Positions 14,722-64,000 of a stretch of DNA of 64,000 nucleotides are shown in pieces. A program made the position numbers and the translations under genes. The stretch covers positions 2,688,001 to 2,752,000 of the forward strand of contig OY764159.1 of the NCBI GenBank assembly GCA_963668175.1. Direction: 5' to 3'. How positions within the stretch are numbered: the stretch's first letter is position 1; each line of letters opens with the position of its first letter. Source of the stretch: Syntrophales bacterium (GTDB taxonomy: Bacteria; Desulfobacterota; Syntrophia; Syntrophales; PHBD01). The notes under the pieces are model-generated. The model made no database searches. It was not told the origin of the DNA and was given only the letters and a program-made list of their open reading frames with translations.

Positions 14722-14983
14722 GGGGCCTCCTTTCAATGCGGATTGGCCGAGCGCTCCGGCGCGGCCGCACCCGCAGCATAGCACAAGGAACAGGCTTTTG
14801 TAGAGGGGCGGATTGCCATTCGCGATTCTTAAGAAAAATAGTTTTCAGAAGCCCTGCGGCAGAAGCGATAAAACCGGCAGCAGGTTTTATTGGCTTCACC
14901 TACGAAGATGCACAGGCCGGATATGGTGGACGATGAAGATAACGACTTGAAAGCTTCATCTTCGATAGGCACAACAGGTTATA

Positions 14984-16950: not shown

Positions 16951-16971
16951 GGCGGCGGCTCCTGCGATGGA

Positions 16972-17313
16972 TTATGCAGCCTTGGCGGCCGGTTTGATAT
17001 CCAGGCCGACGAGGACGCGTTCCGTGTTGGCCAGGTCGCCGATGATCTTCTTGACCGGCTGCGGGAGCTTCCGGACGAGGGTCGGCAGGGCCAGGATCTG
17101 GTCCCCCTTGGCGAGGGCCGGGTTCTTGAGAAGATCGATGACCTCGATGCGGTAGCGGCCCTTCAGGTGATCCTCGCAAATCTTCTTGAGATTGGCGAAG
17201 GCCGCGAGAGACTTCGTCGTCTGCCCGGCCACATAGAGCTTGAGAGTCCAAATCTCTTCGGAAAAATTACCGGCAGTGTTATTGTTTTTCTTCTTCCGTG
17301 TTGTCTCCATCAT
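16972..17313 (-). CDS. kaiB: Circadian clock KaiB family protein
   Basis: [32 protein letters not shown]. Confidence 0.95.
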
Positions 17314-30539: not shown

Positions 30540-31262
30540 TCAAATATCGCCCTGCTTATTGATATGGCTTTGACCTATCAGAGGTAACTTCATTCCACTC
30601 GGTAGTTCTTCGGCATGTCCTTGAGTATTCCAGACAATCTCTACAAGTTCACGAATTCGATCAACTATTGGTTTAGCGTCATTTCCAAGCTTTCCTAACA
30701 CTACACCTGCATCTCCTATGAGTCCCCAGAATCTATCAAGGTCGGAGATGCGTTTGTGTAATTCAGATTGCAGTGCTTCCAGGCGTTTAAGCAGACGTCT
30801 TTGGTGATCCGCTTCCAGTTTCTCACTTGAAGTAATGAAATCACGAAGTTCATTAATCAGTGTTTGAACACGTATTAGATCACCTTTTGAGAATTCGTAT
30901 ACGAAAGTAACGCCCATTTTGCTGCGTATTACTAAGCGATCTTTTTCGGTCTTAATTTCCCTTTCCAAATTGCTTAACATTTCAAGAGTGTTTTGAAGAA
31001 ATTGATGAATTATACTGCATTTCTCAGACATGGAATGAGATCTAAGCATGGACGGCATTACAAAATTCACGGGAAACATCTTTCCTTTATTCATTTCATC
31101 TAGAATAAGATAAGCTTCCATGAGTATGTCGTATTCTTCTTGTTTCCATGATTGTTCATTCGACATATTTGCAAATGTTGATTCGCAAACATCGATAGCA
31201 CCAGATATTGGATCATGTTTCAGATCTTGCAAGAAATCATCGTCAAAAATCATCATTGTCAC
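30540..31262 (-). CDS. Hypothetical helical protein (AT-rich islet)
   Basis: 240-aa ORF, low GC; no motif recognised. Confidence 0.65.
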   Translation of the reverse strand: MTMMIFDDDFLQDLKHDPISGAIDVCESTFANMSNEQSWKQEEYDILMEAYLILDEMNKGKMFPVNFVMPSMLRSHSMSEKCSIIHQFLQNTLEMLSNLEREIKTEKDRLVIRSKMGVTFVYEFSKGDLIRVQTLINELRDFITSSEKLEADHQRRLLKRLEALQSELHKRISDLDRFWGLIGDAGVVLGKLGNDAKPIVDRIRELVEIVWNTQGHAEELPSGMKLPLIGQSHINKQGDI

Positions 31263-31456
31263 CCCCGATATTGAAATCTGATTTTGTGACTTCTGAATAT
31301 CTTATGTGGTAGACAATAGGAATATTTTATTTAGATGTCAAATATTTTAACTATGATGTGATGAACAATTCCTAGGAAACCATCCCCACAGTCAGTGGAC
31401 GTGATACTTATTGATCGATAGTTCCCTCCGATAAATTAGGAGAAAAAGGGGACGGT

Positions 31457-32483
31457 TGTTAATGCTCAGTAATTAGGTAACCTTTCTGGTATAATAAATA
31501 AACCATAAGGGGATACCTGATGAAGCATTCTGAACAAGTCGTTATCAAGCGATGGGGCCCGATCTTAAAGGAATACGAAAAGACCAAATCAAAAGTTACG
31601 CCCCGTGCCTTTCGATATATCAAGAACCTTTGTGAAGCACATCATATTTCACGGAAAGAACTATATCGTTATTATCGTAAATGGGTTGAAGGCGGCAAGA
31701 GTCCAGAATCCCTTCTCCCCCAAAAACGCGGAGCAAGACCAGGTTCCAGAAGAACGCCCAAAACCATAGAGAGAAACATTGTCAAGGCCTATCGTCGCTT
31801 TGGCTCTAACCGATACGAACTGGTCCTTCTGTTCAAGCCTTATTACCTGGATAAAACGCCTTCGCCGGCCACCATGGATAGAATCAAGGCACGCTATCCG
31901 CTCAATGCAACGGCGAAGAAGATTATCAAGCGTTATGAAAAGAAAACTCCCGGCGAACTGGCCCATATCGATCTGACCAAACTGCCGAAAGATTTACGGT
32001 GCTCATTTAAAATCAAAGAACTCTATGCTGCGGCGGTTTGCGATGATTGCACCAGAATCACCTATGCCGAAATTATCAAGGATAAAAAGGCTTCAACCTT
32101 GACTTATTTCATGGCTCGTTCGTTCTCCTGGTTTAAACAGATATACAATTTTGAGTATGAGGCCGTCATGTCCGATAATGGACCCGAATTCAAAGGAACC
32201 TTGGAACGTGAACATCCCTTTGAAACGATGTGCCAGGAATTGGGCATCAAGCATGTCTATACTAGGCCCTATCGACCGCAGACCAATGGAAAGATTGAGG
32301 CCTTTTTCCGAATTTTAAAAGAGGAGTTTTGCTATTCAAATACCTTCGATTCAGAACAGGATCTCGTCATGAATCTTGGGAATTTTCTCTTCGAATACAA
32401 TCATCTCCGCAGGCATGGTGGATTGAATTATGAAACTCCTTTTGATAAACTACAAAAAGTTACCGAATTAGTGAGCTAGTACA
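31457..32483 (+). mobile_element. IS481-family insertion sequence
   Basis: TGT...ACA ends, imperfect IRs (tgttaatgctcagtaattaggtaac / gttaccgaattagtgagctagtaca), acggt direct repeat on both flanks. Confidence 0.9.
31520..32479 (+). CDS. IS481-family DDE transposase
   Basis: PGELAHID, DDCTR, SDNGPEF, RPQTNGKIE, YN..R.H. Confidence 0.93.
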   Translation: MKHSEQVVIKRWGPILKEYEKTKSKVTPRAFRYIKNLCEAHHISRKELYRYYRKWVEGGKSPESLLPQKRGARPGSRRTPKTIERNIVKAYRRFGSNRYELVLLFKPYYLDKTPSPATMDRIKARYPLNATAKKIIKRYEKKTPGELAHIDLTKLPKDLRCSFKIKELYAAAVCDDCTRITYAEIIKDKKASTLTYFMARSFSWFKQIYNFEYEAVMSDNGPEFKGTLEREHPFETMCQELGIKHVYTRPYRPQTNGKIEAFFRILKEEFCYSNTFDSEQDLVMNLGNFLFEYNHLRRHGGLNYETPFDKLQKVTELVS

Positions 32484-32570
32484 ACGGTTCTATTTATCGG
32501 CTGCGTCAGCCATACGCGGCCGTTCTTTCGAAGAATTCAAACGTTCCTTTTGAATCGCGCGATAAGTTGA

Positions 32571-32837
32571 CTAGTACACATTTTTGCGATGGCCGACTTT
32601 GACCACAATGACGAATAGCCGCCGATCTTCGATCTTACAGATCAACCGATAGTCGCCGATACGGTAGCGCCAGTATTTTCCCAACTCCGGGCCCTTGAGC
32701 GGCTCCCCGATCGTGCGGGGATCATCAAGAGGCTTTATCCTGCTTTCCAGGAACTTGAGTATTCGGCGGATCGTCTGACGGTCCAGGGCTTCAAGATCTT
32801 TTTCGGCCTGGGGCAGGAATTCAATCTTCCAGGCCAT
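32571..32837 (-). CDS. relE: Type II toxin, RelE/StbE family
   Basis: AEKDL..LD, G.PLKG..LG.YWRYRIGDYR.I, VGHRK.VY. Confidence 0.92.
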   Translation of the reverse strand: MAWKIEFLPQAEKDLEALDRQTIRRILKFLESRIKPLDDPRTIGEPLKGPELGKYWRYRIGDYRLICKIEDRRLFVIVVKVGHRKNVY

Positions 32838-33039
32838 ATTTTTTCACCAACTCGTCAAGCGGTATCGTCTTGGACTGATCGAATGTCTGCATCCGTTCTT
32901 CTGAGAGGTAAAAATCTTCCAGATCATCGATGTATGAAACAACCGCTTCCCGAACGTAATGGGTCTTGGTGCGTCCCGTGCGGCTGGAGAGTTTGGCCAG
33001 GCGGCTTTCGATCTCTGACGGCAATCTTACGGCAATCAT
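32821..33039 (-). CDS. Ribbon-helix-helix antitoxin (RelB/CopG-like)
   Basis: AVRLP.EIE.RL..L...TGRTK..YVREA; overlaps toxin; AAGGAGG RBS. Confidence 0.88.
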   Translation of the reverse strand: MIAVRLPSEIESRLAKLSSRTGRTKTHYVREAVVSYIDDLEDFYLSEERMQTFDQSKTIPLDELVKKYGLED

Positions 33040-33050
33040 GTATGAATCCT

Positions 33051-33074
33051 CCTTGATATACATGTATATCAAGG
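33051..33074. promoter_or_regulatory. Perfect 24-bp palindrome, likely TA autoregulatory operator
   Basis: ccttgatatacatgtatatcaagg immediately upstream of the antitoxin RBS. Confidence 0.75.
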
Positions 33075-34239
33075 GCTGACGGATAAGTCAAGGGGCATAC
33101 AAAAAAATGGGGACAACCGCCCCATTTTTTGCTTTTTGAGCGGGTTGCGACTCTGAGCGATGTCTTGGTTTGAAAGTCAAGAAAAGTCAAAGATGGACCT
33201 ATTCCCTGAATATCGGTTCGATATTCGATTTATTCATTTTTGTATGAGGATTCAATTGGCGAAGGTTCTTTTCGGAAGGGACTGACGAAACGGCTGATCG
33301 AGAAGGTAGGAAGCGTAAAGCTTCCTACCTTCTAATGGATTGGTTTATTTCGACCATCCAAGGAGTGTGAATTCTGACACTCTCATCGCTTGGGATCAAG
33401 GAGGCGGAAAGTCCGCTGCTTCACGCCTTCTTGTATGTCAGCTTATCTCAACCAGTCGGGGAGCGTGAAGTCGGATAAGCTGCCGACGTCGTCTTTTATC
33501 TTTCCCTCTTTCTTTACAGATTTTCCTTTCTCTTTGGATTTTCTCGTTTTGTCGCCTGTTTTTAACATAATCATCATCTCCTATCTTTTCTTTTGCCAGG
33601 ATTGATGCTCCGTTGAGACCTGCCCGATGGTAGCGGCTGCTTCTGTCTCCCGGCATCGTTTTCCTGGATTATCGTTCCGGGGATTGCATTCGATTTTCTC
33701 TGCAAACGTTTGTCGCGGTTTTAATGTTTCCCCGCGACTCTCTTTCTGACGGCTTTAGGATGATCCCGAACGTAGCGATTAACAATCAGACGAAATCTGA
33801 ATATGTAATCAGCCAAAGGTGCTTATCCGTATCGGAACCAAACGACACGAAGGATCAGGCTTAGTCTGATGAAATACCTTATATGATAGAAGGATTGCGT
33901 CTGAGAATGGATTGCCCGCACGGATAATAGGCTCTACTGGTTGATAATGCGCCGAGATCGGAGAGAAATGCCGTATTCGGGATATTGCGGCGGGAAGTCG
34001 ACGGTCACGGCTTGTACCGACAATGTCTTCGTTTCCGGCGGAAAGAAAACGGCGGAGAATAAAGCGGAATATTCGGTAGGACAACGGGATGCATGTTTGA
34101 TCGGATTTTATCTGATCCGCCCCTTTTTTGATTCAATATGGAAAGGTTTGGACTTTCCGACGAGGGGATAATACATTGGCGGCTACTTCACGCGCCGGAG
34201 ATGCCTAAACCTATCTGAGAGACCAAAGGACTGGACAAA

Positions 34240-34785
34240 ATGAAAGAGTTGAACAATCTGAGACTTAAGACAAATCACCTTGAGTTAATCGCTGCGACAT
34301 TGGAACATATCTGCAAAGAGCTGGAATCTCCTGAACATCTTGCCGCTTTATTGGGAGCACAGGTGGAACCGGGATGGCCGCCGGGTGAGTATGACCGCGA
34401 TGCCCAGGAATTCTTCCGGGATTGTCTTCAATGCTGGGGTATATCCGTTGTCGGGTGGTATGGTTGGTATGCCGTCCTGCGAGAAGGACCAAGCAAGTCC
34501 TCCACGCTGGTGGGAGCAGGCGGGTATTTTGGCCCTCCGGGTAAAGACGGAGAAGTGGAGATCGGTTTTTCCATGATGCCTTCCTGGCGGAATTTAGGAT
34601 ACGCAACGGAAATAGCTGGAGCGCTCATTGTTAATGCGTTCAACGATGCGCGAGTACAAAAAGTCATTGCTCACGCATCAGCTGAAAATGCAGCATCGAT
34701 AAAGGTTCTCATGAAATGTGGTTTATGTCGTGTATGCAGGGACCAAGAATCAGGTGAGGATCTTTTTGAAATATCGAGGAGCTGA
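34240..34785 (+). CDS. GNAT acetyltransferase (RimJ/RimL family)
   Basis: GEVEIGF...WR..GYATE, EN.AS..VL.K.G. Confidence 0.88.
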   Translation: MKELNNLRLKTNHLELIAATLEHICKELESPEHLAALLGAQVEPGWPPGEYDRDAQEFFRDCLQCWGISVVGWYGWYAVLREGPSKSSTLVGAGGYFGPPGKDGEVEIGFSMMPSWRNLGYATEIAGALIVNAFNDARVQKVIAHASAENAASIKVLMKCGLCRVCRDQESGEDLFEISRS

Positions 34786-49953: not shown

Positions 49954-50526
49954 CTACCGTCTGGTGCTGGACCCGACCCCGACTCCCGGCATGACATACC
50001 ATGCGTCCGCGACGGTCAGATTCATTTTTTCCTGCACTTTTTCGCCGTCGACGATCAATGTCAGGAGGATGCCGTTCTCCCCGAACGGCAGGAAGTTCGG
50101 CTCCCACCAGCAGGCCCTCGGGTCGAGGCAGAACCAGAAGGCCATGGCGTTGGGGGAGAGGTTCCTCATGAATGTCCTGTTGCCGATGATCCTTTCGTTG
50201 CGCCTGGGGGCGTCACGGTTCCCGACGACGATTCCCTGGTAATAGAACCCGCCGTTGGTCGCGCCGTTGTGGATGAATTGGGTCCGGTTCCAGTCTATTT
50301 CGATATCGGCGTCGGTTTTGTTCTCGATGGTGAGAACGAGCGTCGTAAAGCCGCGGTACTCGACCATTTTGGTCCCGTTCCAGCTGGTGTAATCCGGAAC
50401 GATGGAGGCGTTGAATTGGGGTCTTGCGACAGCGGCCGCTTTTCTCGGATCGCTCCATTTGGTGGGCGCTTTCGTGCAGCCGAAGAGAACAAGAACGCAG
50501 AAGAGAGCAATCGATATTTTCTTCAT
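49954..50526 (-). CDS. Hypothetical lipoprotein
   Basis: Lipobox LFGC; IENKT...IEIDWN. Confidence 0.7.
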   Translation of the reverse strand: MKKISIALFCVLVLFGCTKAPTKWSDPRKAAAVARPQFNASIVPDYTSWNGTKMVEYRGFTTLVLTIENKTDADIEIDWNRTQFIHNGATNGGFYYQGIVVGNRDAPRRNERIIGNRTFMRNLSPNAMAFWFCLDPRACWWEPNFLPFGENGILLTLIVDGEKVQEKMNLTVADAWYVMPGVGVGSSTRR

Positions 50527-50591
50527 CTTCCCCCTCTTGGACGAATGCCGTTCACTTGCCGAGGCGGCAGCATTTCGTCGTATGATCAGAT

Positions 50592-50912
50592 TCACGGTTT
50601 CCGGGCTCGCGGGCTTTGGCGGGCGAGCCCCATGGCGCCCGCATGCCGCCGGAAAGCCCGGCCGCGAGCATCGTCAAGCCGCGGCATAATAGGGTATCGG
50701 GCGAATGGCCTCGTCATGGTCCTCGATAGCCTGCCGATATCGTGTCGGTCCGAAATAGGCGGTTCCCCGGGTTGCGTTTCTCCGGCGATATCTCCCGGAT
50801 TCGGCGTCTGCGGCGTTGTGCCGGCGGCGCTCACGACGGCGAGGGGACGGAAAAGGACGACAGGCGGAAAGATGAGGACGACAAAAAGAAAGGCGGCAGA
50901 GATGCGCTTCAT
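50592..50912 (-). CDS. Hypothetical exported protein
   Basis: Signal-like N-terminus; AAGGA RBS. Confidence 0.35.
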   Translation of the reverse strand: MKRISAAFLFVVLIFPPVVLFRPLAVVSAAGTTPQTPNPGDIAGETQPGEPPISDRHDIGRLSRTMTRPFARYPIMPRLDDARGRAFRRHAGAMGLARQSPRARKP

Positions 50913-51128: not shown

Positions 51129-51680
51129 CTATTGCAGGGAGGCCACGCACTTCTTCAAATTGCTGTCCTTGAGGATTTCGACGGTGATCTTGTCGATCAT
51201 GGCGTAGGCCCTCTGTTCGAGATATTCCTGGTCCCGCTTTTCCGGCGGCGGCATTTTTATCGTGTACCGCTTCCTGTAAAGCTGCTCCTCGTCCCGGCGT
51301 ATATCGATCTCCACGACGATTTCCCGGTCCGAGAAGCCGAACAGGTACCACCTCAGTTCCGGGATGATCTTCGAGGAGGGCATGGCGTCGTACAGCTTGA
51401 TTCCCGAATGCCTGAGGGCCGTCTGGAATACCTTGTAGAAATAGGACGACACGGAAGGATGGCTGGTGTATCGTTCTTGCGAGTCGACGCTGTAATAGTA
51501 GCCGAGCGTCGTGTTGTCGGCCCGGTTGTAGAAGACAAAAAGCAGCGATTTGCCTTTGTACTCGGCATAATCGGCGGTGGAAAAGGCAGGGTCGTACCGG
51601 TCCGGGCTGAGCCAGACGCGGGAACATCCGCACAGAAGGCAAAAGGCGCACAAGAGCACAATCCATTTGTTTTTCATCAT
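51129..51680 (-). CDS. Hypothetical lipoprotein
   Basis: Lipobox LCGC. Confidence 0.7.
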   Translation of the reverse strand: MMKNKWIVLLCAFCLLCGCSRVWLSPDRYDPAFSTADYAEYKGKSLLFVFYNRADNTTLGYYYSVDSQERYTSHPSVSSYFYKVFQTALRHSGIKLYDAMPSSKIIPELRWYLFGFSDREIVVEIDIRRDEEQLYRKRYTIKMPPPEKRDQEYLEQRAYAMIDKITVEILKDSNLKKCVASLQ

Positions 51681-52177: not shown

Positions 52178-52429
52178 TTACGACGGGACGTTGCAGGAAT
52201 AGTGGATGCGGCAGGCGCCGCAGTAGCCGCAGCTGGTGCAGCAAAGGACGTTGTCCGTCCCGCAGTCGGGGCATTTCGATTTGACCGGGCTCCTCATCCC
52301 GCCCTGGTCCTTTTCGCACGAGTTGTGCAAATGGCACCTCCCGCAATACCCGCAGAAGGAGCAGCACAACACGTTGTCCGCGCAGGTCCGCGTCGGACAT
52401 TTGGCAACGGCCGGCGTCTTCATTCCCAT
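52178..52429 (-). CDS. Cys-rich small protein with duplicated metal-binding motif
   Basis: 16 Cys in 83 aa; two DNVLCCxxCGYCGxCxxHxSC units; AAGGAG RBS. Confidence 0.75.
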   Translation of the reverse strand: MGMKTPAVAKCPTRTCADNVLCCSFCGYCGRCHLHNSCEKDQGGMRSPVKSKCPDCGTDNVLCCTSCGYCGACRIHYSCNVPS

Positions 52430-52517
52430 GGGGGCTCCTTTCGCTTGGGTGGGGATGGACGACGTTACCTCCTGATAAGATTAGCGAGCCGGAAACAAAG
52501 AGACGATGTGAAATTAA

Positions 52518-53114
52518 TTACCGCTTTTTGTTGAACTCTATCCAATTTTCAAAATTTCTTTTGAAGTATTCTCTTGAACCAATTTTTGTGCATTCAATAT
52601 AAGACATATTTATCAAATTATATTCATCCTTTTTTAGGATATATCTTTCGTCGAGTTCTTTCTTAATGAGACAATCGAATCTGTCATCTATGAATTCCAA
52701 GTAAGCGGCATGTTGGGGTAAGATTTTTATTTCTCCAAAATTCGGGCTGAGTAACCATAAATATTTTTCAAGTTCTTTACTGAGGGAATCCGATAAATAT
52801 GGGCTTGCCTGAGTTAAATGGTTTTGAAATTTATCAAAATATGAAATATTATATTTGGCGCTAGTGTCCATTGTCATCCGAGAGATTTCATTTGTAAGGT
52901 CCTTATAACTTAGCACCATCTTATTGATTACTTCATATTTTTTTTCATAGAAAATTCTGTCTTTTGTTAGAATATTTTTATAATTTTCAAGCCATATATT
53001 ACCAGCCAGAACCGTAACGACGATGATAATACCTATAAGTAATTTGTCAATAACGATTTTAATAATATCATATTTTAATTTGAGCTTCTCATCTAATAGA
53101 TTATTTTCGTTCAT
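52518..53114 (-). CDS. Hypothetical single-TM protein (very AT-rich islet)
   Basis: 198-aa ORF with N-terminal TM. Confidence 0.65.
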   Translation of the reverse strand: MNENNLLDEKLKLKYDIIKIVIDKLLIGIIIVVTVLAGNIWLENYKNILTKDRIFYEKKYEVINKMVLSYKDLTNEISRMTMDTSAKYNISYFDKFQNHLTQASPYLSDSLSKELEKYLWLLSPNFGEIKILPQHAAYLEFIDDRFDCLIKKELDERYILKKDEYNLINMSYIECTKIGSREYFKRNFENWIEFNKKR

Positions 53115-53150
53115 ATGTTTATCAATACGCTAGATAATAAGAATATTAAT

Positions 53151-53351
53151 CTACTTATCACTTTGAGGAAAGTCTGGAACTCTGTGATGACCCGTTTCAT
53201 GTTCAGATGGTGAAGTGCCTGCTGGGGCTGGGGCTGGGGCTGTTCTTGCAGGTTCCGCCGGCTTTTGTTCTTCGGCTTTTTTGCAGCCGTTAATAGAAAT
53301 TATTGCGAGTAAAAACATTGTCGCCATTAATAACAGTATCAATTTTCTCAT
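53151..53351 (-). CDS. Small Pro/Ala-rich lipoprotein
   Basis: INGC.KKAEE..PA.PAPAPA; GGAGG RBS. Confidence 0.6.
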   Translation of the reverse strand: MRKLILLLMATMFLLAIISINGCKKAEEQKPAEPARTAPAPAPAGTSPSEHETGHHRVPDFPQSDK

Positions 53352-53511
53352 ATCAGTCTTTCCTCCATGAATGCTTTCATGAAACATTCAATTGCTAAGA
53401 TCAGGTAGACTAAGTTTGAAGTAGCCCCCAATTGAACCGGACACTTTGAATCTGGAAATAAGTTGTAGGAATAGATATAGAGATATTACTACAACCAGAA
53501 AGAAGGTGTTT

Positions 53512-53889
53512 ATGGTTCCTGTAGAAGTGATCGTCGGTGTACAGAGGCGACGTCGCTGGTCGGCTGCCGAGAAGAAGTCGATGGTGCGGGAGGCGGAGCA
53601 GCCGGGAATGAGCATCTCGGCTGTAGCCCGGAAGTATGACATCCATCCGAACCAGTTGTTCCACTGGCGCAGGCTTGCCGAAGAAGGGGCTCTGTCGGCG
53701 GTTGGTGCAGATGAAGGCGTCGTTCCTGCATCGGAAGCCAGAGAACTGAAAAAGCAGATCCGGGAGTTGGAGCGTCTTCTGGGCAAAAAGACAATGGAGG
53801 TGGAGATATTAAGGGAGGCTGTCCGGATTGCCCGTGAAAAAAAACTGATCTCGCGGTTGCCGTTGTTGCCGGAGGACGATTCCCGATGA
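53512..53889 (+). CDS. IS3 transposase OrfA (HTH)
   Basis: RRRWS..EK, VARKY.I.PNQLF.W; A8 run near 53837 is a plausible -1 frameshift site. Confidence 0.9.
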   Translation: MVPVEVIVGVQRRRRWSAAEKKSMVREAEQPGMSISAVARKYDIHPNQLFHWRRLAEEGALSAVGADEGVVPASEARELKKQIRELERLLGKKTMEVEILREAVRIAREKKLISRLPLLPEDDSR

Positions 53890-54734
53890 AGACGGTTGTC
53901 GATACGCTGGACGTTTCCCGTTCCCGGCAGTACGAAAGGCAAGGGAAGGAAGCCGATTCGAGAAGCCGCCATTACAGGAGAGGCGACGATGGCAGATATC
54001 TTCTTCTGATCAGGCAGGTTATTGATAATCGTCCCAGTTACGGCTATCGGAGAGTAACGGCAAGAATCAACAAGCTTCTGGAACGTCAGGGGCATCCGGG
54101 AGTTAATCCCAAACGGATTTATCGTCTCATGAAGATGCACAATCTGCTTCTTCAGCGGCATACGGGTAGGCCGGCAAGGCTTCACGAGGGTAAGGTCACG
54201 ACGAGACGGAGCGATCTTCGTTGGTGTTCCGATGCGTTTGAGATTGCCTGCTGGAATGGGGACCGTCTCCGGGTAGCGTTCAGCATGGATTGTTGCGACA
54301 GGGAAATCATGAGTTATATAGCCACGACAGGGGGCGTATCCGGCGACATGGTCAGGGACTTGATGGCGGAAGCCATTGAGGCCCGTTTCGGTATGATCAA
54401 TCGGCTGCCTCACAGAATCCAGTGGCTGAGCGATAATGGTCCTGCGTACACCGCCAGGGAAACGAAAAGCTTTGGGCAGATGATGGGGCTTGAGGTTTGC
54501 ACGACCCCGTTCTATAGCCCGGAATCGAACGGAATGGCCGAATCCTTTGTCAAGACCTTCAAGAGGGATTATGTTCATCTGAATATCCTGACTGATGCCG
54601 AAACGGTCATGAAGCAACTGCCCGGATGGTTCGTAGACTACAATGAAAACCATCCGCACAAGGGATTGAAAATGATGTCGCCCAGGGAGTATAGGAGACA
54701 TCAAAATAAGTTAGAACAGTGTCCGGTGAAATAG
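53886..54734 (+). CDS. IS3 transposase OrfB (DDE)
   Basis: YGYRRV, WCSD, WLSDNG, SPESNGMAESFVKT.KRDY. Confidence 0.93.
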   Translation: MKTVVDTLDVSRSRQYERQGKEADSRSRHYRRGDDGRYLLLIRQVIDNRPSYGYRRVTARINKLLERQGHPGVNPKRIYRLMKMHNLLLQRHTGRPARLHEGKVTTRRSDLRWCSDAFEIACWNGDRLRVAFSMDCCDREIMSYIATTGGVSGDMVRDLMAEAIEARFGMINRLPHRIQWLSDNGPAYTARETKSFGQMMGLEVCTTPFYSPESNGMAESFVKTFKRDYVHLNILTDAETVMKQLPGWFVDYNENHPHKGLKMMSPREYRRHQNKLEQCPVK

Positions 54735-54780
54735 GGGCAACTCCAAAGTTCAGTATGCCCATTATTTGAATAATAAATTA

Positions 54781-56424
54781 CTACCAAGCTGCGAGTTGAG
54801 TTATGGCTACATCAATAGTATTCGATCGAATCTTCAGAAAAGAATTATAGTCATCCTTTAGAGCTGCTTCAAACGCTTCTATTGAAATCAGATTTGAATC
54901 AAGCCATTGTTTAAGATTGTCTCCTGCTGCTCGTTGGACTTGCTTTAAGTAATCAGAGGGGGCTCTACTTGAAATTTGCTTATTACTTACTGAAGTAAGC
55001 ATGATGATATTTGCGAGAGAATTTGGAAGACCATCATCCATACCTTCGTTTTTTAAATAGTCCTGCGGAAAAAAATGGTGATATTCTTTTTGATTAGTCC
55101 ATGCCAGGGACTTACTAACATCAATGTGTTGGCCTGTTAGAATATCAATCGGCATATGATGAGCTAAAATTATTGCAAGGGTTTTCGCATGAGCACTGTC
55201 CGATCGAAAGGGTTTATTGATCCATATGGTGGAATTCGGTCTATATGCGGGTACAATGACTTCGTTTTCTGCACCTGTTGCGAATCTTGAAACTGCTTCT
55301 TTATCACGCGCCATGCTGCCTGTGTTCCATCCAGAGAAATATCCGCTCGAAGCTGTACGCCAAAACCACTTCCTGATTGCACTATATTGCGCGGCATTAG
55401 GTGTGGGGAGCAACCTAAATATCTCTGAGAGAACAACAACTTGATTGGCATAAGGTATGATTGCATCACTAGGAATTCTTATTTGTGTTGTTAAAAAGTC
55501 GATTGTTTTTTCATAAGCAGCTTGGCTGTTTGTTGTTGCTTCTTTTAATACATCGGCCGGGTGTTTGCGGAGGCTATTAATGCTTTCGACCGAAAATCCA
55601 CCTCCCGCAGCGGCGGACATCGTTCTGAGTATGACCTTGCGGTCAAGTCCTCCAAATGACTTGGCGTTTAGTGCTTTCAAAACACTATCGATCGAATCTA
55701 TTAGATCGAAGTTCTGACTCCAAGTTGCAGCGCGCATCAAATCTACAATTGTCAGACGTGTTCCTGTACTATTAATGCGTTCAAAAATCGGGGCCACATC
55801 CTGAATAGACATGTCACCAAGTGTGACAACAGCTACTTTGTAGTCTTTGAATCTATTAAAAAGTGCATCAGCGTTGGCTTTTAGCGTATCTTTGTCTGGT
55901 GCACTGAGCGAGTCTAGGGTTGCGTAGAATTTGTAAAATACGGCTCCGTCCGCAAGTTTATTCATCCGGACTTGATGCTGGGGGGGGTCATCAAGAGTAT
56001 CAAGATGCAAGAATTCACATTTACGAAGATCATATGCTATATTCCATACACTGTTTGGCTCTGTCCCATTCCAGTATAAAGCGCCGCAAATTGCGGAGAG
56101 GCGTTGTTGTCCATCAAGCAAATAATTTACAGGGTAATCGGGACGCGGCAAATCAATTTTCAAATCGGCGATACGATTTTCACTTCGCAACTCCTGTCTA
56201 CTCTGCCAAAGAAGAAGGCTCCCAATGGGATAATTCTGAGCAATCGAATCAAGCAGATCAAGTACTTGCTGTCGTTTCCATATAAAATCGCGCTGAAACT
56301 GTGGTAATAGAATATCGCCAGCTCGTACACGCCGCGCGAGTTCATCAATTCTATCCACGCTAGGTTGTGGATCTTTAGGCACAGGTGCAGTTGGGCCAGA
56401 CTTAGGATGAATATTTTCTGTCAC
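54781..56424 (-). CDS. DUF262-domain protein (GmrSD-like putative restriction/defence nuclease)
   Basis: PQFQRDFIW, LDGQQRL, FERINS.G..L; C-terminal EYHHFFP...N...L...N HNH-like motif. Confidence 0.85.
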   Translation of the reverse strand: MTENIHPKSGPTAPVPKDPQPSVDRIDELARRVRAGDILLPQFQRDFIWKRQQVLDLLDSIAQNYPIGSLLLWQSRQELRSENRIADLKIDLPRPDYPVNYLLDGQQRLSAICGALYWNGTEPNSVWNIAYDLRKCEFLHLDTLDDPPQHQVRMNKLADGAVFYKFYATLDSLSAPDKDTLKANADALFNRFKDYKVAVVTLGDMSIQDVAPIFERINSTGTRLTIVDLMRAATWSQNFDLIDSIDSVLKALNAKSFGGLDRKVILRTMSAAAGGGFSVESINSLRKHPADVLKEATTNSQAAYEKTIDFLTTQIRIPSDAIIPYANQVVVLSEIFRLLPTPNAAQYSAIRKWFWRTASSGYFSGWNTGSMARDKEAVSRFATGAENEVIVPAYRPNSTIWINKPFRSDSAHAKTLAIILAHHMPIDILTGQHIDVSKSLAWTNQKEYHHFFPQDYLKNEGMDDGLPNSLANIIMLTSVSNKQISSRAPSDYLKQVQRAAGDNLKQWLDSNLISIEAFEAALKDDYNSFLKIRSNTIDVAITQLAAW

Positions 56425-57324
56425 TAGTCACACTCCTTCTTCAAGTCGCAAAAGACGCAATATGACCTGTAACTAATTATGATCTTTCTTCTATTTGATC
56501 ATAATGGATAATATTTATGAAAACCGTGTATGAATAGTAATGTGTAATTGAAAACAGAATAGTCGTAAAATCACGTGTCATAGAATTCTGAACTTAAATC
56601 CTCCTTTTGTCAAGATAAATATCAGCAAAACCTATTCTAAATAGCTTAAGCTCCTTTAAAAAATACCGAATCGTCATCGGAATTTAGGGTACTCAACGCC
56701 GGGTGGATGGTTAATCAAAATCGAAGCAAAAGGGTGAGATGGCGCGGGCGTGAAGTTGGGATTTGCTTAATCAACGCCGTTTAGCTTAACCAACAGGCTT
56801 CCTTTGCTTATCCAAAGGTCCAACCAAAACGGAAGCAAATTTTAAAAATTTGGTTAACTTTTGCTTAAGCAGCGCTTCCAAAACCTTGTCAAGAGGCAAT
56901 GATATATCGTTTGCCGGCCTCTGCCGGCCCCACGCGGTCATCCTTGAAGGGTCGGAAAAAAGAGGGCATATAATGTTTTTAGGTTCAGGCAGGGCGAAAA
57001 AGAGGGACAAAGAGAGGGTAAGCAAGCGTAAGGCGTTAGGCGGTTATGGGGGAGGAAGGGTGAGAAGGCGAAGCGCACTGCTGAAAGGCTTCCGCAGGGT
57101 TTTGGTGATCCTTCCGTCTTCATGAATGATCAAAAAAACGCGCGCCCGATTTCAGCGAAAACCCCGCCACCCCCGAAAACGCATTTTTAACCGGATTTCT
57201 ACTTTTCCCCGACAAAATCGCTCCGCAAACCCTCCGCCGGGGAGGAAAAAAGTTTTGACTTTTTCGGACTCCCTCCGCCGTCTCGAAGATAAAAAATCCC
57301 CCCGCAGTATATATCGGGCTTTAT

Positions 57325-57516
57325 TTAATCGGCGCTATTCGGTATTTCTAATTTTCCTTTCTTTTTATTTGATATAAAATCACTCTTTTCTGTTGTTTCT
57401 AAATTGAGCGGGATCTGGTCCGTCCCTGCTTTTTTTTGCCATCCCCCTTTATTCCAATCGCCTTTATTCCAAGGTTGATCATTTGATCCGCCTGTTTTCT
57501 TATTCTTGGCAGCCAT
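57325..57516 (-). CDS. Small hypothetical protein
   Basis: GGAGG RBS directly after upstream stop; WNKG repeats. Confidence 0.4.
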   Translation of the reverse strand: MAAKNKKTGGSNDQPWNKGDWNKGGWQKKAGTDQIPLNLETTEKSDFISNKKKGKLEIPNSAD

Positions 57517-57530
57517 TAGACGGCACCTCC

Positions 57531-59261
57531 TTAAATGATTTTATTGATTGCCTCAATTTTTTTGAAGAAATCATCTATTTCTCTTGCGGCTTCTTTCACC
57601 TTTTTAGAATGGTCCTGCAATTTATTGTTCTCTGCCTCGCTTTTAGCCTGATATAAATTGTATTCCGCTGTCCATAACTTCTTTTCTGATTCTGTGCCGG
57701 TCTTTCTTGTATCTTTCATAAGCGCGACGTACTCTTGTTCAATTTTATCAATCTTTGCCTTTTCATTATCGGTTATCAAGGAATTACCTTCTGATATTAC
57801 TACATCGGCTTTTTCTATCAGGCCTTTCTTTTCCTTAGCAAGTTGTTCATTATTGCTTGGCATGGTTTTTGTGCTCAAATCGCTCTTTTTTTTCGCTAGA
57901 ATCTTTAGATCGTCACTCAGTAAATTATATGCCAGTTGGGGAAAAATTGCCTCTTTCATTTTAACGTCCTCTGCAATCTGGTGTTTTGCTAGATCGAGTT
58001 TTTTAGTCTCAATTTCAAGTGTTTTGAACTTTAGTGCGTATCGATTATCCTGTGCTTTCGAAATAAATTTCTCAAGGTTCATAACACAATGCTCGGAAAG
58101 TAAGGTCCCTTTGGTGTTGAGGCTGCTTGCCAGGAAGAAAGGGCGTGATTTTACTGCATCCACCCATTGACTCAAATCTTTCCTTTCGTTATTCAAGCCC
58201 TCTTTTTCCTTATCTTTCAAAGCTTGTTTTTTAAACTCTGAGATCTGATCGATCGAGAGATTTAAATAAGCTCTGTCTTCAGAAGATTGTAATTTCCAAC
58301 CACCAAGCTCGATTAAACATGCCGAAATATAGGCTTGTTCAATATCCTTTTCGATAAAAGTTTTATGCATTTCTCCTAATATCTTTGCAGTATCAGCATC
58401 ATGTTTTGGAGTAAGGCCGCCCATCGCTATTAGTTGGCTCACCTCAGAAGCCGATTTACTGGTTGTGTCAATTTGTACGCTCAATTTCTGTATGATAGCA
58501 TTCTTTTCTACGTTGGCTGCATCCAATTCTGCCTTCTTTGCATCGCGTTCAGCCTTTAATTGGTTTTTTTTTGGATCAGCATCAGTCGCGTCAGTATATG
58601 CTTTGTCAGCAGCTTTGTAGGCGTCATCTTTCTCTTTGACTTTTTGTTGTGCCGCGTCGAGCTCTGCTTTGGCCTTATCAATATCTTTCAGCATTTCGGG
58701 AAAGCCGACTAATTTAGCTTGAGCTTCAGCGTTCGCTTTTAATCCTATTGCCGCGCCTGTTCTACCGAAAGCTCCACCTGCAACCTCACCGAGGATTAGC
58801 GTTACCAGCAAATCGTCCAATCGGCTCGTTCGCAAGCTATACGTCGTACCGGTGATTGCTCCGTTGGCATAGTCTAGGCACGCCTGATATCCCTGATGCA
58901 GTAACGCTTGAATAGCCGTAGTCCGTTCAGCGAGTTGGGCTATAGCTTCAGCTTGACTGCCGGAAAGACTTGCGCTGCCGTAATTTAAAACGCTGATACC
59001 GAACCCGAATGAGCTTGCGAGTGCTGCTGCGACAATCGGGCCTGGTTCTGTACATGTAATTACGTTTGGATCAACTCTTCCGGGGCGTGATGCTATGCCG
59101 GGTTTCATATGTGTGATCATCCGAAGCCTGGCATCCGTTGCTATTCCTTGGCCGTCTTCCAAAACCTTCACTTCTTTCAGATCCCCTTTGGGAGCCGTGG
59201 CACAGCCGGAATGCAAGGCTATGAAAAAAATAATGCTAAAACCGATTTTCACTCTCCTCAT
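57531..59261 (-). CDS. Large coiled-coil lipoprotein, hypothetical
   Basis: Lipobox HSGC; C.EP.P and YQAC..YANGAI motifs; GGAGGA RBS. Confidence 0.75.
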   Translation of the reverse strand: MRRVKIGFSIIFFIALHSGCATAPKGDLKEVKVLEDGQGIATDARLRMITHMKPGIASRPGRVDPNVITCTEPGPIVAAALASSFGFGISVLNYGSASLSGSQAEAIAQLAERTTAIQALLHQGYQACLDYANGAITGTTYSLRTSRLDDLLVTLILGEVAGGAFGRTGAAIGLKANAEAQAKLVGFPEMLKDIDKAKAELDAAQQKVKEKDDAYKAADKAYTDATDADPKKNQLKAERDAKKAELDAANVEKNAIIQKLSVQIDTTSKSASEVSQLIAMGGLTPKHDADTAKILGEMHKTFIEKDIEQAYISACLIELGGWKLQSSEDRAYLNLSIDQISEFKKQALKDKEKEGLNNERKDLSQWVDAVKSRPFFLASSLNTKGTLLSEHCVMNLEKFISKAQDNRYALKFKTLEIETKKLDLAKHQIAEDVKMKEAIFPQLAYNLLSDDLKILAKKKSDLSTKTMPSNNEQLAKEKKGLIEKADVVISEGNSLITDNEKAKIDKIEQEYVALMKDTRKTGTESEKKLWTAEYNLYQAKSEAENNKLQDHSKKVKEAAREIDDFFKKIEAINKII

Positions 59262-59795
59262 GGCACTTCCTCCCTTTATGAGATGGGTTTTGTAGGAGAT
59301 CGACGTTCGTAAATTCCTTCCCTTGATTATGATCTTTTAAAAAACACGAATTACTTGCGTATATATCTGCAACAAGATGGGATTTCGCAGTTACTTCATT
59401 TTTCTTACGAGCGAAGGGTTTATAAAGTCGGTTTATATATTGAAAAAAATTACAGGATCGGAATACGCATGCGAATAGAATAGGAAAGAGTCACGCAACA
59501 GAAGTGTTAAAGTTAATTTCATTCAAGCGTAAAATAACGAAATTGTCAAGATTAATATAGTTATATTAAGTTATCAATATGAGTATAACACCTCGTAATA
59601 TGTGCATTAGCCGCACATTATCACCCCTGTAGAGAATAAGATGAATTCCCTCTCGTAAAATCCCCTCTTATAAATCCCCCCCCCGAAAAAACTTTTTTTT
59701 GTCACCGCTTGAATGGCACCCCTTGAGCGGCACGCCTGATGGCACCCTACATGGCAGTTTGGCAGGCTTTTCCGGCATCTGCTAGCATTCCTCCC

Positions 59796-60239
59796 ATGGC
59801 AAGGAAAGCAACCGAAACAGCCCAGGCAAACGCCGACGACTTCAGGGCCCTGGCCTCGCAGAAGGGCCTCACGCCCGCGAAACTGATCGAGGAGCTTGCC
59901 GTCATCGCCACGGCGGACATCGCCGACTTCGTTACCGTAAGCGAGGACGGGGCTCTTCAGGCGAAACCCCTGACGGAATTGAAAGGCGCCAGCCGCGCCG
60001 TCCGAAAGATCAGGGAAAAAACCGTCATTACGGAAAAGGCCGACGGCTCCGTCCTCACGAAAACAAGCACGCTCGAATACGAGCTGCACCCGAAGCTGGA
60101 AGCCATCGACGCCGGTTTGAAGATTCACGGCATGAAGGCGCCGGAGAAGCGCGAGGTGAGCGCGGAGCTGAAAGCCGCCGCCGATCTCCCCCCGGCGATG
60201 AAGTCCGCCCTCGACGAAATCTACATCAAGGCATCATGA
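59796..60239 (+). CDS. Putative terminase small subunit
   Basis: EELA.IA.ADI.DF...KLEAID pattern; overlaps terL start (ATGA). Confidence 0.65.
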   Translation: MARKATETAQANADDFRALASQKGLTPAKLIEELAVIATADIADFVTVSEDGALQAKPLTELKGASRAVRKIREKTVITEKADGSVLTKTSTLEYELHPKLEAIDAGLKIHGMKAPEKREVSAELKAAADLPPAMKSALDEIYIKAS

Positions 60240-61780
60240 CGCGAAAAGAAGCCCACGTAAGTTACAAGAAACTCTTCTCCGCCTGCCGGAGCGACAAGGC
60301 CCGGAACGCCCTGTTCCGCGAGCTATGCCTCCGGGACCTTTTTTTCCTCCTCGCCTACGGCCTGGGGCGCCGGGACGTGGACCGCGACTGGACCTACGAC
60401 CGGTGCCGCGAGGTCGAGGCGGAGCCCGACGGCCGCCTGGACCTGTGGGCGCGCGAGCATTACAAGTCCACCATCATCACCTTCGGCCTCACCATCCGCG
60501 ACATCCTGAACGACCCGGAGATCACCGTCGGCATCTTCTCCCACACGCGGCCCATCGCGAAGGGGTTCCTGCGCCAGATCAAGCAGGAGTTCGAGACGAA
60601 CGTGAAGCTCAAGGGCCTCTTTCCCGAGATCCTCTGGGAGAACGCCAAGCAGGCGGCGAAATGGTCCGAGGACGACGGCATCACCGTCCGGCGCGCATCG
60701 AACCCGAAGGAGGCGACCGTCGAGGCCTGGGGCCTCGTGGACGGCCAGCCGACCTCGAAACATTTCAGGCTCCTCGTCTACGACGACGTCGTCACGCGCG
60801 AGTCCGTCACGACGCCGGACCAGATCGCCAAGGTGAACAAGGCCTGGGAGCTGTCGCTCAACCTGGGCTCCGAGGGCGGCCGCCGGCGCTACATCGGCAC
60901 GCGCTACCATTACAACGATACCTACAAGCTCATCATGGACCGCCGCGCCGCCGTCCCCCGCATCCATCCCGCGACGAAGGACGGCAAGCCGACGGGCAAA
61001 GCGGTGCTCCTCACGAAGGAAATCCTCGAGGAGAAGCGCCGCGACATGGGGCCCTACACCTTCGCCTGCCAGCTTCTCCTGGACCCCCGGGCGGACGACG
61101 TCCAGGGCTTCAAGCTCGACTGGCTTAAAACGTGGCCCGCCCAGAACCACTCGCATCTCAACAAGATCGTCCTTTGCGACCCGGCGGGCGAGAAGAAAAA
61201 GGAGAACGACTACACCGTCGCGATGGTCATAGGCCTCGGCGAGGACGAAAATTATTACGTCGTCGACATGGTCCGCGACAGGCTGTCCCTCACGGAGCGC
61301 GGCAACCTGATCATGAAGCTCCACCGCGAGTACCGGCCGACCTTCGTCGGCTACGAGAAATACGGGAAGGACTCGGACATCGAGTTCATCCAGTTCCTCC
61401 AGGAGCGCGACAATTACCGCTTCGGCGTCACGGCCCTGAAGGGGGCGCTGCCCAAGAACGACCGCATCCGCAAGCTGATCCCGCTCTTCGAGCAGGGCCG
61501 CGTCTATCTGCCGGACCACTGCATCAAGACAAGCTACGACGGCCGGACGGAAGACCTCGTCCGCGTCTTCGCGAACGAGGAGTACCTGGCCTTTCCGGTG
61601 CCCGTCCACGACGACATGCTCGACTGCCTGGCGCGGATCATGGACCCGGACTGCACGCGGGATTTCCCGTCCCGCCGCGACGCCTCCTACGAGGAACGGG
61701 CCGCGGACACGTGGCTCGACGGCTTCGGCGGCAGGCGGCGCGACGAGGCCGAATACCACTACGACATCTATGCGAGGTGA
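60236..61780 (+). CDS. terL: Phage terminase large subunit
   Basis: Deviant Walker A REHYKST, Walker B LLVYDDVV, IGTRYH, nuclease DPA, DYT, HDDMLD. Confidence 0.88.
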   Translation: MTRKEAHVSYKKLFSACRSDKARNALFRELCLRDLFFLLAYGLGRRDVDRDWTYDRCREVEAEPDGRLDLWAREHYKSTIITFGLTIRDILNDPEITVGIFSHTRPIAKGFLRQIKQEFETNVKLKGLFPEILWENAKQAAKWSEDDGITVRRASNPKEATVEAWGLVDGQPTSKHFRLLVYDDVVTRESVTTPDQIAKVNKAWELSLNLGSEGGRRRYIGTRYHYNDTYKLIMDRRAAVPRIHPATKDGKPTGKAVLLTKEILEEKRRDMGPYTFACQLLLDPRADDVQGFKLDWLKTWPAQNHSHLNKIVLCDPAGEKKKENDYTVAMVIGLGEDENYYVVDMVRDRLSLTERGNLIMKLHREYRPTFVGYEKYGKDSDIEFIQFLQERDNYRFGVTALKGALPKNDRIRKLIPLFEQGRVYLPDHCIKTSYDGRTEDLVRVFANEEYLAFPVPVHDDMLDCLARIMDPDCTRDFPSRRDASYEERAADTWLDGFGGRRRDEAEYHYDIYAR

Positions 61781-61783
61781 ATC

Positions 61784-62080
61784 ATGAGTTTAGGTTCCGC
61801 GAACTGGTTATGGATACGGCAGGCCCTTGACAGCAATCCCGATCCCATCCCCCCGCCTCCGCCCGCGCCGGTGATCACGGTCCCGGAAGTCAAGGAGCCG
61901 GAAACGCCGGACAAGTCCGTTTCGGAAACGAACGCCGGCATCGCCGACGAAAAACGCCGGGTGCTGGCCGCGCTCCCCAAGGCGACGAAAACGGTCCTGG
62001 ACCAGACGGGCGACCAGGGGAAGGTGAAAAGGAAGACGCTCCTCGGGGCGGGCGGCGCGGGAAGCGCCACACTCGGATGA
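61784..62080 (+). CDS. Phage hypothetical protein preceding portal
   Basis: Pro-rich, ends KTLLG as in small pre-portal podovirus genes. Confidence 0.65.
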   Translation: MSLGSANWLWIRQALDSNPDPIPPPPPAPVITVPEVKEPETPDKSVSETNAGIADEKRRVLAALPKATKTVLDQTGDQGKVKRKTLLGAGGAGSATLG

Positions 62081-62088
62081 GGTGTAAC

Positions 62089-63738
62089 ATGACGGTAAAG
62101 GCCGACGCGGAAGATATCGTCCGGAAGTACGACGACCTGACAGGCAACCGGGGCACGTATCTCGCGCACCTGCGGGAGATTTCGAGCTACATGGCGCCGA
62201 CGCAGGCTTCGACGCTCTCGCCCATGGTCGAGGGCGGCAAGCGGACCGAATACATCTACGACGGAACGCAATTGCGGTGCGTGGACAACTTCGCCAACGG
62301 CATGTACGGCAACCTCACGCCGGTGGCCACGCCGTGGTTCGCCCTGGCCTGCCGTAACAAATCGATCAACGACAACGCTGCCGTGAAGACCTGGCTCTCC
62401 GACACGACGGAGCGCATGCGCGACGCCGTCAACACCTCGAACGCCGGGATGGCCCTCTTCGAGTGCTACAAGTACCTGGCCTGGGCCGGTTCGGCGGCGG
62501 TCTACATTACGAAGGGCACGCGCTACGCCCTGAACTTCAAGACGTTCTCCCCCGCGGTCTGCGTCTGGGAGGAAGACCCGGACGGCATCGTCGACTCTCT
62601 CTACCGCGTCGAGAAATTCACCGCCCGCAAGTGCATCCAGGCGTGGGGCGATCGGGTCAGCGAAGAGATCAAACAGGCCTACATCGGGAACGACAACACG
62701 AAGACCTTCGACATCCTCCATGCCGTCTATCCCCGCGACGATTACGACTGGTCGAAGAGGGACGGCATCAACATGAAGTACGCCTCCGTCTATCTCGTGA
62801 AGGAGTCGCGGCATGTCCTTTCGGAAGGCGGCTACAGCGAATTCCCCTATGCGGTCCCACGGTGGGACAAGGCGGACGGCGAGGTGACGGGCCGTTCCCC
62901 GGGCATGAATGCCCTGCCCGACGTGAAGCAGTTGCAGCAGGTCGTCTACGACACGACGGTGGCGCACCAGATGTGGCTGCGGCCGCCGGTCCTGGCCTCG
63001 AAGGAATCGGCTTTAAGCTCCACGCGGTTCCAGCCGGGCAAGATCATCTACCACCGCACGGGCGAAAGGCCCGAGCCCTGGCCGATCTCCGGCGACCTGC
63101 GGGTGTCCCTCGAAGAGAAGAACAGCCTGCGGGACGCCATCCGCCAGTCCTTCTTCAACGACCTCTTCATCGTCCTTGGCGACAATGTCCCGGGCAGGAC
63201 GGCCTACGAGGTCCGGCAGATGGTCGAGGAGAAGATGAACATCCTGGGGCCTTTTCTGGGCCGGCTGATGGTCGAGCTTCTCGACGTCATGCTGTCGAGG
63301 GTCTTCTGGGTCCTCTACCGGAACGGCTATATCACGCCGGTGCCGAGGGAACTCGTCAACCAGGGCCTCAACATGGAATACATCGGGAGGCTCGCGCTGG
63401 CCATGAGGCGGTACGAGACCGCGGCTGCGGCGGATGCGCTGCAGATGACGCAGACCATCGCCCAGGCGGACCAGAGCGTCCTCGACAACTGGAACATGGA
63501 CGAAGTGGTTACCGGCACGGCGCAGCGCGCCGGCGTCCCGGTCAAGTACCTGCGGCCCGCGAACGAACGCGACAAGATGCGCCAGGAGCGCGTCGCGCAG
63601 ATGCAGGCGCAACAGCAGGCGCAGCAGCAGGATGCGACGGCGCAGGCCCTGGCGGAGCAGGTGCCGAACCTCTCCAAAGCGCCCGAGGAAGGGTCGCCCG
63701 CAGAGGCGCTCCTCAAGGCCATGGGAGGAAAGCAATAA
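62089..63738 (+). CDS. Portal / head-to-tail connector protein
   Basis: PWF.L, FPY.V.RW....GE..GRSP...ALPD.K.L, TAYEV, LGP..GRL..ELL. Confidence 0.92.
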   Translation: MTVKADAEDIVRKYDDLTGNRGTYLAHLREISSYMAPTQASTLSPMVEGGKRTEYIYDGTQLRCVDNFANGMYGNLTPVATPWFALACRNKSINDNAAVKTWLSDTTERMRDAVNTSNAGMALFECYKYLAWAGSAAVYITKGTRYALNFKTFSPAVCVWEEDPDGIVDSLYRVEKFTARKCIQAWGDRVSEEIKQAYIGNDNTKTFDILHAVYPRDDYDWSKRDGINMKYASVYLVKESRHVLSEGGYSEFPYAVPRWDKADGEVTGRSPGMNALPDVKQLQQVVYDTTVAHQMWLRPPVLASKESALSSTRFQPGKIIYHRTGERPEPWPISGDLRVSLEEKNSLRDAIRQSFFNDLFIVLGDNVPGRTAYEVRQMVEEKMNILGPFLGRLMVELLDVMLSRVFWVLYRNGYITPVPRELVNQGLNMEYIGRLALAMRRYETAAAADALQMTQTIAQADQSVLDNWNMDEVVTGTAQRAGVPVKYLRPANERDKMRQERVAQMQAQQQAQQQDATAQALAEQVPNLSKAPEEGSPAEALLKAMGGKQ

Positions 63739-63987
63739 ATGCCGTACAGCCATTTGCCGGAGGAGGAACAGGACAGGCAGCGCAAGATCGATTTCAACGC
63801 GACGTTCGGCGGCGAAACAGGCTTCCGCGTCCTTCAGGACCTGGTCCTCAACGCATGCCACATGTTCAGGCCTTCCGTCGAGGTGGACGATAAGAATACG
63901 GAGGTCTTCTTCCGCGAGGGCGAAAGGCGCATAGGGCTCTACATCATGGAAAAGCTGAACGAAGATCTCAGGTCGAAAATACTCTAG
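63739..63987 (+). CDS. Bbp19-like phage protein
   Basis: F...G.RVL.DL...FREG.R.IGL.I motif following portal. Confidence 0.7.
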   Translation: MPYSHLPEEEQDRQRKIDFNATFGGETGFRVLQDLVLNACHMFRPSVEVDDKNTEVFFREGERRIGLYIMEKLNEDLRSKIL

Positions 63988-64000
63988 GAGGAGAAACGAT

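Follow-up and report, generated by a model that had tools for sequence, protein, structure and literature searches.

Whether a block of phage packaging genes that begins abruptly in bacterial DNA is one end of a prophage, or a module that the host has captured, is the question raised by the last 4.3 kb of a 64,000-nucleotide (nt) stretch from a Syntrophales bacterium (assembly GCA_963668175.1, contig OY764159.1, positions 2,688,001 to 2,752,000). We call this whole stretch the window. The part of the element that it shows consists of five genes, encoding a small terminase (TerS), a large terminase (TerL), a protein of 98 amino acids (aa), a portal and a Bbp19-like protein, all of them known from sequence only; the source contig is 4,567,304 nt long and runs on past base 64000. 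On balance, we think that the element is an ordinary prophage whose integrated map starts with the packaging genes. The end of such a prophage, or a cryptic prophage, is the most likely reading of the locus, and the window cannot show host capture.

The five open reading frames (ORFs) are all full length, lie on the + strand and are tightly coupled. The TerS ORF (59739-60239, 166 aa) is followed by TerL (60236-61780, 514 aa) with a 4-nt ATGA overlap, then, after a 3-nt gap, by orf98 (61784-62080, 98 aa), which overlaps the portal gene (62077-63738, 553 aa) by 4 nt; the gene for the Bbp19-like protein (63739-63987, 82 aa) adjoins the portal with a 0-nt gap. Upstream, an AT-rich spacer (59261-59738) separates terS from a divergent lipoprotein gene, and the G+C fraction (GC) is 0.33-0.41 there (59.2-59.8 kb) versus 0.58-0.70 in the module. 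We compared codon usage with that of 18 host genes of the window. GC at third codon positions was 0.87 in the module and 0.82 in the host genes, and relative codon usage correlated with that of the host at r = 0.976, against a baseline of 0.986 between two halves of the host gene set. A reading made from the sequence alone (hereafter, the sequence-only reading) had described a terS-TerL-orf-portal-Bbp19-like series that starts abruptly after an AT-rich spacer, with intact, tightly coupled genes and host-like C/G-ending codons; the ORFs, their junctions, the family matches given below, GC and the codon figures bear out this description. The host-like codon usage does not separate capture from prophage, because it is expected of any phage adapted to a GC-rich host.

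At the right edge of the window (63987-64000, + strand), a ribosome-binding site, AGGAGGAG, is followed by 'AT' at 63999-64000, with which the next gene probably begins. The operon therefore goes on past base 64000, where it would continue with scaffold/protease and then capsid genes, as it does in those loci whose portals are closest. A search with a profile of related capsids was uninformative on this point; the source contig was absent among the best 120 of 2535 matches.

The portal gene is the clearest of the five. Its product matches PF12236 (Head-tail_con) at E 4.4e-115, across 3-488 of the 489 positions in the profile, and phrog_332 at 1.4e-118; it also matches 8ck0_A, a solved portal, at E 7.1e-64, and is unambiguously predicted to be a head-to-tail connector of the T7/BPP-1 type. 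We found 55 relatives with identities from 91% down to 24%; the top ones are at 91, 85 (for a fragment whose name points to a Syntrophaceae metagenome-assembled genome (MAG)), 75, 71, 70 and 68%, followed by others at about 55-24%. A portal scan of 185,579 species genomes gave a best portal at 52%, within an ordinary prophage (L002; L numbers denote the 80 loci fetched for comparison). The protein encoded after the portal matches PF25181 (Phage_Bbp19) at 1.1e-7, with 32 bits versus a cut-off of 25, and phrog_528 at 9.7e-7. A Bbp19-family gene directly follows the portal also in L002, L003, L006-L008 and L080.

TerL matches phrog_38 at 1.1e-61 and Terminase_6C at 3.5e-7, and is 57-60% identical to five TerL proteins of other genomes. 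The blocks REHYKSTIIT, YDDVVTRES, GTRYH and HDDMLD are invariant in all six aligned proteins, and we read them as probable ATPase and nuclease motifs. TerL gave at least 7999 matches, the best non-self one at 75% identity. Larger TerL relatives of 748-856 aa also exist (protein P0254 and similar), one of them with the homing-endonuclease domains PF05204 and PF14528, which suggests that there are inteins in this TerL family; homing-endonuclease domains are found in forms of 823 aa. Between TerL and portal, orf98 gave no Pfam or PHROG family match, and tblastn at 1e-5 found no homologues of it. By blastp clustering and alignment, homologues of orf98 occupy the same position between TerL and portal in L001 and L003, and their alignment shows a conserved C-terminus, DEKRR...LLGAG.

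The first ORF of the module is less evident from direct matches. It hits Terminase_2 (PF03592) weakly, at E 1.1e-3 and 20.1-20.6 bits, under the gathering threshold of 26.1 bits and across profile positions 53-135 of 141 only; it has no PHROG match at 1e-3, and the part of phrog_51 that the match spans is limited to positions 145-222 of 261. Its homologues, however, match the same families. Terminase_2 was matched by 41 of the 59 members of the homologue alignment, with a best E of 6.9e-43, and two long homologues match phrog_51 at 6e-28 and 3e-39. By this transitive homology the first ORF is a small terminase; its best non-self relative is 88% identical.

Homologues of TerS come in two forms. 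A full HMMER scan gave 239 cluster representatives at E <= 1e-3, and among the best 150, which we used for the length and domain split, 80 are long (median 193.5 aa), with an extra N-terminal segment; an 'AGYS'-type helix-turn-helix (HTH) motif is present in 48 of these. The extra segment is missing from the remaining 70 (median 155 aa), of which 3 have the AGYS-type motif. Short homologues begin near query residues 20-30, and translation of the window's TerS probably starts at the ATG at 59796, for a protein of 147 aa. Judged from this alignment, the window's TerS is of the short form, without the N-terminal HTH domain. An AlphaFold2 model (pLDDT 85.4) predicts two helices, beta strands with a long hairpin, then C-terminal helices; a comparison of the model with PDB folds returned nothing at E <= 0.001, and sequence-profile searches of PDB with TerS and TerL gave no match. 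No match to terS was found by tblastn in 50,697 records of cultured phages. A TerS profile run over all fetched loci matched L050 and L067 only, and thus no fetched locus carries this terS-TerL pair.

The region around the start of terS contains five copies of [TC]GGCA[CG] on the + strand (59714-59765; starts at 59714, 59728, 59740, 59752 and 59760), spaced 8-14 nt apart. This is the sole 70-nt stretch of the window with at least four copies, over a background of 1.1 per kb. The cluster overlaps the first ATG of the terS ORF and lies upstream of the likelier start at 59796; it is a candidate site for regulation or for packaging recognition. A sigma-70-like sequence, TTGGCA-18-TAGCAT with a TG, lies at 59759-59788 and is a consensus match only (6 such sites were found versus 4.4 expected). 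We also considered a sigma-54 reading of the TGGCAC repeats, which was a partial match by eye only, and dropped it.

The families outline how the element would work as an ordinary prophage. The five genes would open, at its promoter-proximal end, the late (morphogenesis) operon of a short-tailed temperate phage, whose portal lineage would be that of BPP-1 and the HTVC010P-type pelagiphages, and which would be integrated in the 4.57-Mb chromosome of a GC-rich and probably Syntrophaceae-like bacterium. Oligomers of TerS would recruit TerL to phage DNA, and TerL would cut the DNA and pump it through the dodecameric portal into the procapsid. Genes for scaffold/protease, capsid and tail-tube proteins would be expected past base 64000. 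The packaging genes would thus be the left end of the integrated map, with the early, lysogeny and integration genes, if kept, at its far right end, and the AT-rich island upstream, with an IS3 element and a GmrSD-like gene, would be separate foreign DNA at the junction. We infer both the downstream continuation and the status of a normal prophage.

Comparison with known phages is consistent with this picture in gene content and differs from it in layout. BPP-1 (a Bordetella phage, Rauchvirus) and BPP-1-like prophages have, like the window, terS, TerL, small ORF(s), a PF12236 portal and a Bbp19-family protein, and the BPP-1 portal (bbp21) is 28.5% identical over 91% of the portal. Unlike the window, which has nothing phage-like upstream, BPP-1 has att sites and integrase at its ends beside lysis and early genes. 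The best cultured-phage portals are those of HTVC010P-type pelagiphages, at 33-36% identity (up to 35.7%) over 83-90% of the query with E down to 8e-89, and related Pelagibacteraceae loci have the order portal, Bbp19-like, scaffold, PF19821-type capsid; these pelagiphages, however, differ widely in hosts and base composition, and their TerL belongs to another family. The Smithellaceae prophage L002 (OY821638.1) comes from a related host group, has the closest fetched portal and continues from it with the Bbp19-like gene, scaffold/protease, capsid and tail-tube proteins. It differs in its classic temperate layout and in its TerL; indeed, the TerL type sets the window apart from the closest-portal loci (phrog_38 versus phrog_979 and phrog_2 in L002).

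The relatives of TerL and portal, as judged from their sequences, look like a phage population, with large and diverse families. Contigs of 11524, 21701, 36925, 9613 and 18131 nt are common to the match lists of TerL and portal, which suggests that the two genes are paired in relatives on contigs of up to about 37 kb. The best non-self identity is uneven over neighbouring genes (88% for TerS, 75% for TerL, 91% for the portal). Together with the diversity of the families, this unevenness points to phage mosaicism and is not what a vertically inherited cluster would be expected to show.

Several observations weigh against an ordinary prophage. In BPP-1 the primase and cI region lies directly beside terS; in L002, exonuclease, regulator, RusA and replication-initiator genes lie directly upstream of TerL; and in Desulfovibrio-type loci, early, regulatory or lysis genes lie directly upstream of the terminase. 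The window has no such genes in the 59 kb before terS. The left edge shows no convincing att-like repeat, tRNA or integrase. TerS lacks the usual DNA-binding domain. Finally, the completeness of the element is assumed, as only bases up to 64000 were read.

We screened the upstream 59 kb with Pfam (16 + 59 + 44 = 119 window ORFs) and PHROGs (16 + 15 = 31 window ORFs), and found neither a tyrosine or serine recombinase nor a gene for a repressor or for replication. The statement of the sequence-only reading that no phage integrase, repressor or replication gene is recognisable in the preceding 59 kb therefore stands, with the correction that two DDE (rve) insertion sequence (IS) transposases lie upstream, at 31520-32479 and 53886-54734. 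ORFs of no recognised family at 49954-50595, 51129-51680 and 57531-59261 had no match among phages, and the window, including the spacer, contains no tRNA and no Rfam family. The DNA upstream belongs to the host chromosome, with genes for KaiB-KaiB-KaiC, sensor kinases, CheW, carbonic anhydrase, PfkB and other proteins, and is interrupted by low-GC islands.

The sequence-only reading had also taken it as a rule that early genes adjoin the terminase. This premise held for BPP-1, L002 and the Desulfovibrio loci, and failed in all of the flanked loci that share the TerL type of the window. Of the 80 fetched loci, 22 have a gene of a cI-type family and 21 have one of a late-activator family; most of these are Desulfovibrio prophages, where the gene order is cI, activator, lysis, TerL, portal. 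Six loci have the window's TerL type (56-61%, tblastn), and in each of the four with an upstream flank (L013, L017, L076 and L079) TerL is at the left edge, with host-type genes directly upstream. Starting at a methyltransferase gene shortly before TerL, L076 and L079 are 77% identical in nucleotide sequence; farther upstream they differ. In L079, a tRNA-Asp gene lies 6.9 kb upstream of TerL, with accessory genes (HipA/HTH, SRAP) in between. This pattern and the tRNA-Asp indicate that TerL-first elements occur in different chromosomal contexts, like mobile prophages.

The other two flanked loci, L013 (2759-11629) and L017 (142-7644), come from Halodesulfovibrio MAGs of two species and are collinear, with 66-84% nucleotide identity and intact structural genes. 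In both, a Na:alanine symporter gene separates TerL from the portal, and a GGDEF gene lies shortly before TerL. These additional genes may be phage cargo or may mark a head module that has long been resident; likewise, the collinearity could come from long residence or from related phages that use a single site. The ratio of nonsynonymous to synonymous substitution rates (dN/dS) was 0.06-0.29 for the Halodesulfovibrio loci and 0.14-0.33 for L076 versus L079, indicating purifying selection. This does not discriminate between the readings, because purifying selection fits live phages and domesticated elements equally.

We noted two further features of these loci. Conserved small ORFs (phrog_15261) overlap the called TerL start from upstream in L076 (7982-8359) and L079 (7854-8288), and may be very short small terminases. 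In L076, the structural module also encodes an RTX-repeat protein of 1246 aa (14342-18082).

The left boundary of the module is formed by a low-GC foreign island (52450-59700), with GC of 0.27-0.57 versus about 0.6-0.68 on both sides. GC is 0.41 in the island and 0.63 in the module, and island codon usage correlates neither with that of the host genes (r = 0.05) nor with that of the module (r = -0.05). The island holds a 198-aa ORF (52518-53114, GC 0.29) and an IS3-family element on the + strand (53426-54737), bounded by 20-nt inverted repeats (53426-53445 and 54718-54737, 85% complementary) and comprising the orfA transposase (53446-53889, + strand) and orfB, of rve/HTH_21 type (53886-54734, + strand). 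These are followed on the minus strand by a candidate defence gene of the GmrSD_N/DUF262 type (54781-56424, 547 aa), which matches GmrSD_N at 2.1e-26 and, nearly full length, the PADLOC candidate model PDC-M55C at 3.3e-87. Next to the spacer, also on the minus strand, is a gene for a putative lipoprotein of 576 aa (57531-59261), whose lipoprotein-like N-terminal signal was read by eye; it had no Pfam, PHROG, PADLOC or phage match, and the ESM Atlas gave 'lipoprotein' or 'hypothetical' leads only (0.90-0.91). Capture would explain such an abrupt left edge against a foreign, IS3-bearing island, but a prophage/host junction or a secondary truncation would explain it equally well.

Secondary truncation is the basis of the alternative that comes closest, a cryptic (defective) prophage, which we regard as possible but doubtful. 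Here, the early/lysogeny arm upstream of terS would have been lost or displaced when the low-GC island and IS3 arrived, leaving a structural operon that is intact but allows no self-replication or excision. It is consistent with the early genes directly upstream of the terminase in canonical relatives, with the occupation of this very position by 7.2 kb of foreign DNA that carries a candidate defence gene and an IS3 whose inverted repeats are intact, and with the absence of an att-like repeat or tRNA at the junction. Against it, all five visible genes are full length and tightly coupled, and their catalytic blocks are conserved. Furthermore, there are no phage gene fragments in or beyond the island, and the terminase-first start of all four flanked relatives means that an edge-first layout need not be a truncation.

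It is unlikely, in our view, that the genes are a domesticated head module of podovirus origin, kept by the host in the manner of a gene transfer agent (GTA), in which the HTH-less TerS would start packaging without sequence specificity and the particles would carry host DNA. The lack of early, lysogeny and replication genes in the upstream 59 kb and a codon usage indistinguishable from that of the host would suit such a module. Dd1 particles of Desulfovibrio are said to have a podovirus-like look. RcGTA, the Faecalibacterium FpGTA and Dd1 resemble the window in having a terS-TerL-portal cluster that, on the side visible here, is not adjoined by replication or lysogeny genes, and in a TerS in which no DNA-binding domain can be recognised. 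According to PMC6854486 and PMC11841831, GTA small terminases are encoded directly upstream of TerL and are shortened, helical and without a DNA-binding domain; the window's TerS likewise precedes TerL directly and has no N-terminal HTH. A podovirus-like precedent comes from Faecalibacterium: PMC12946183 reported in 2026 a GTA-like element whose operon runs terS-TerL-portal-scaffold-capsid, and describes it as the first with podovirus-like morphology.

This likeness of TerS does count for a captured module, but three features weaken it. The window's TerS, at 147-166 aa, is not short beside the 92-125 aa of the GTA TerS proteins listed in Table 1 of PMC6854486, and it is modelled with beta strands rather than as almost all helix. 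In addition, the HTH-less form is a common variant, making up 70 of the best 150 cluster representatives, and is no mark of this element. The uneven identity of adjacent genes to their best relatives and the resemblance of the TerL and portal families to a large mobile phage population also argue against a captured module, as does the best match in the species genomes, which at 52% lies in an ordinary prophage, with no conserved synteny shown. We consider quite improbable the fuller proposal that a Syntrophaceae-like anaerobe maintains a podovirus-derived GTA-like element whose HTH-less TerS packages host DNA, and that the TerL-first elements of Halodesulfovibrio and Alphaproteobacteria are of the same domesticated kind.

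Very improbable is a phage satellite or other chimeric mobile element with its own packaging and head genes, of which the adjacent island would be part: the two are contiguous and both foreign in content to the flanking host genes, and L079 does carry accessory genes between its tRNA-Asp and TerL, but island and module differ sharply in GC and codon usage, no integrase, primase or satellite-type regulator is found in the island, and the portal-Bbp19 order is that of full-size phages.

If the element is an ordinary prophage, as is most likely, it adds one more member of the BPP-1/HTVC010P lineage, in poorly studied syntrophic anaerobes, and flags a common TerS subfamily without the HTH domain. 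Were the genes instead a captured module, they would represent one of very few GTA-like systems of podovirus ancestry (compare the element of PMC12946183) and a route of gene exchange in syntrophic consortia.

Other features of the window lie farther upstream. Just left of the island, in a strongly G-skewed, GC-rich stretch, a 65-nt direct repeat is found at 52193-52380 (71% identity, copies 123 nt apart), and the ORFs there had no family match. A second low-GC island (30540-34785) contains the rve transposase at 31520-32479, a ParE toxin (32571-32837) and a GNAT acetyltransferase (34240-34785). KaiC, KaiB, KaiB and a PAS histidine kinase are clustered on the minus strand at 14984-19049, in what is apparently a non-cyanobacterial anaerobe. 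Two 164-aa CheW genes, also on the minus strand (25913-26407 and 26851-27345), lie 938 nt apart, and with identical composition figures and Pfam scores the pair looks like a recent tandem duplication.

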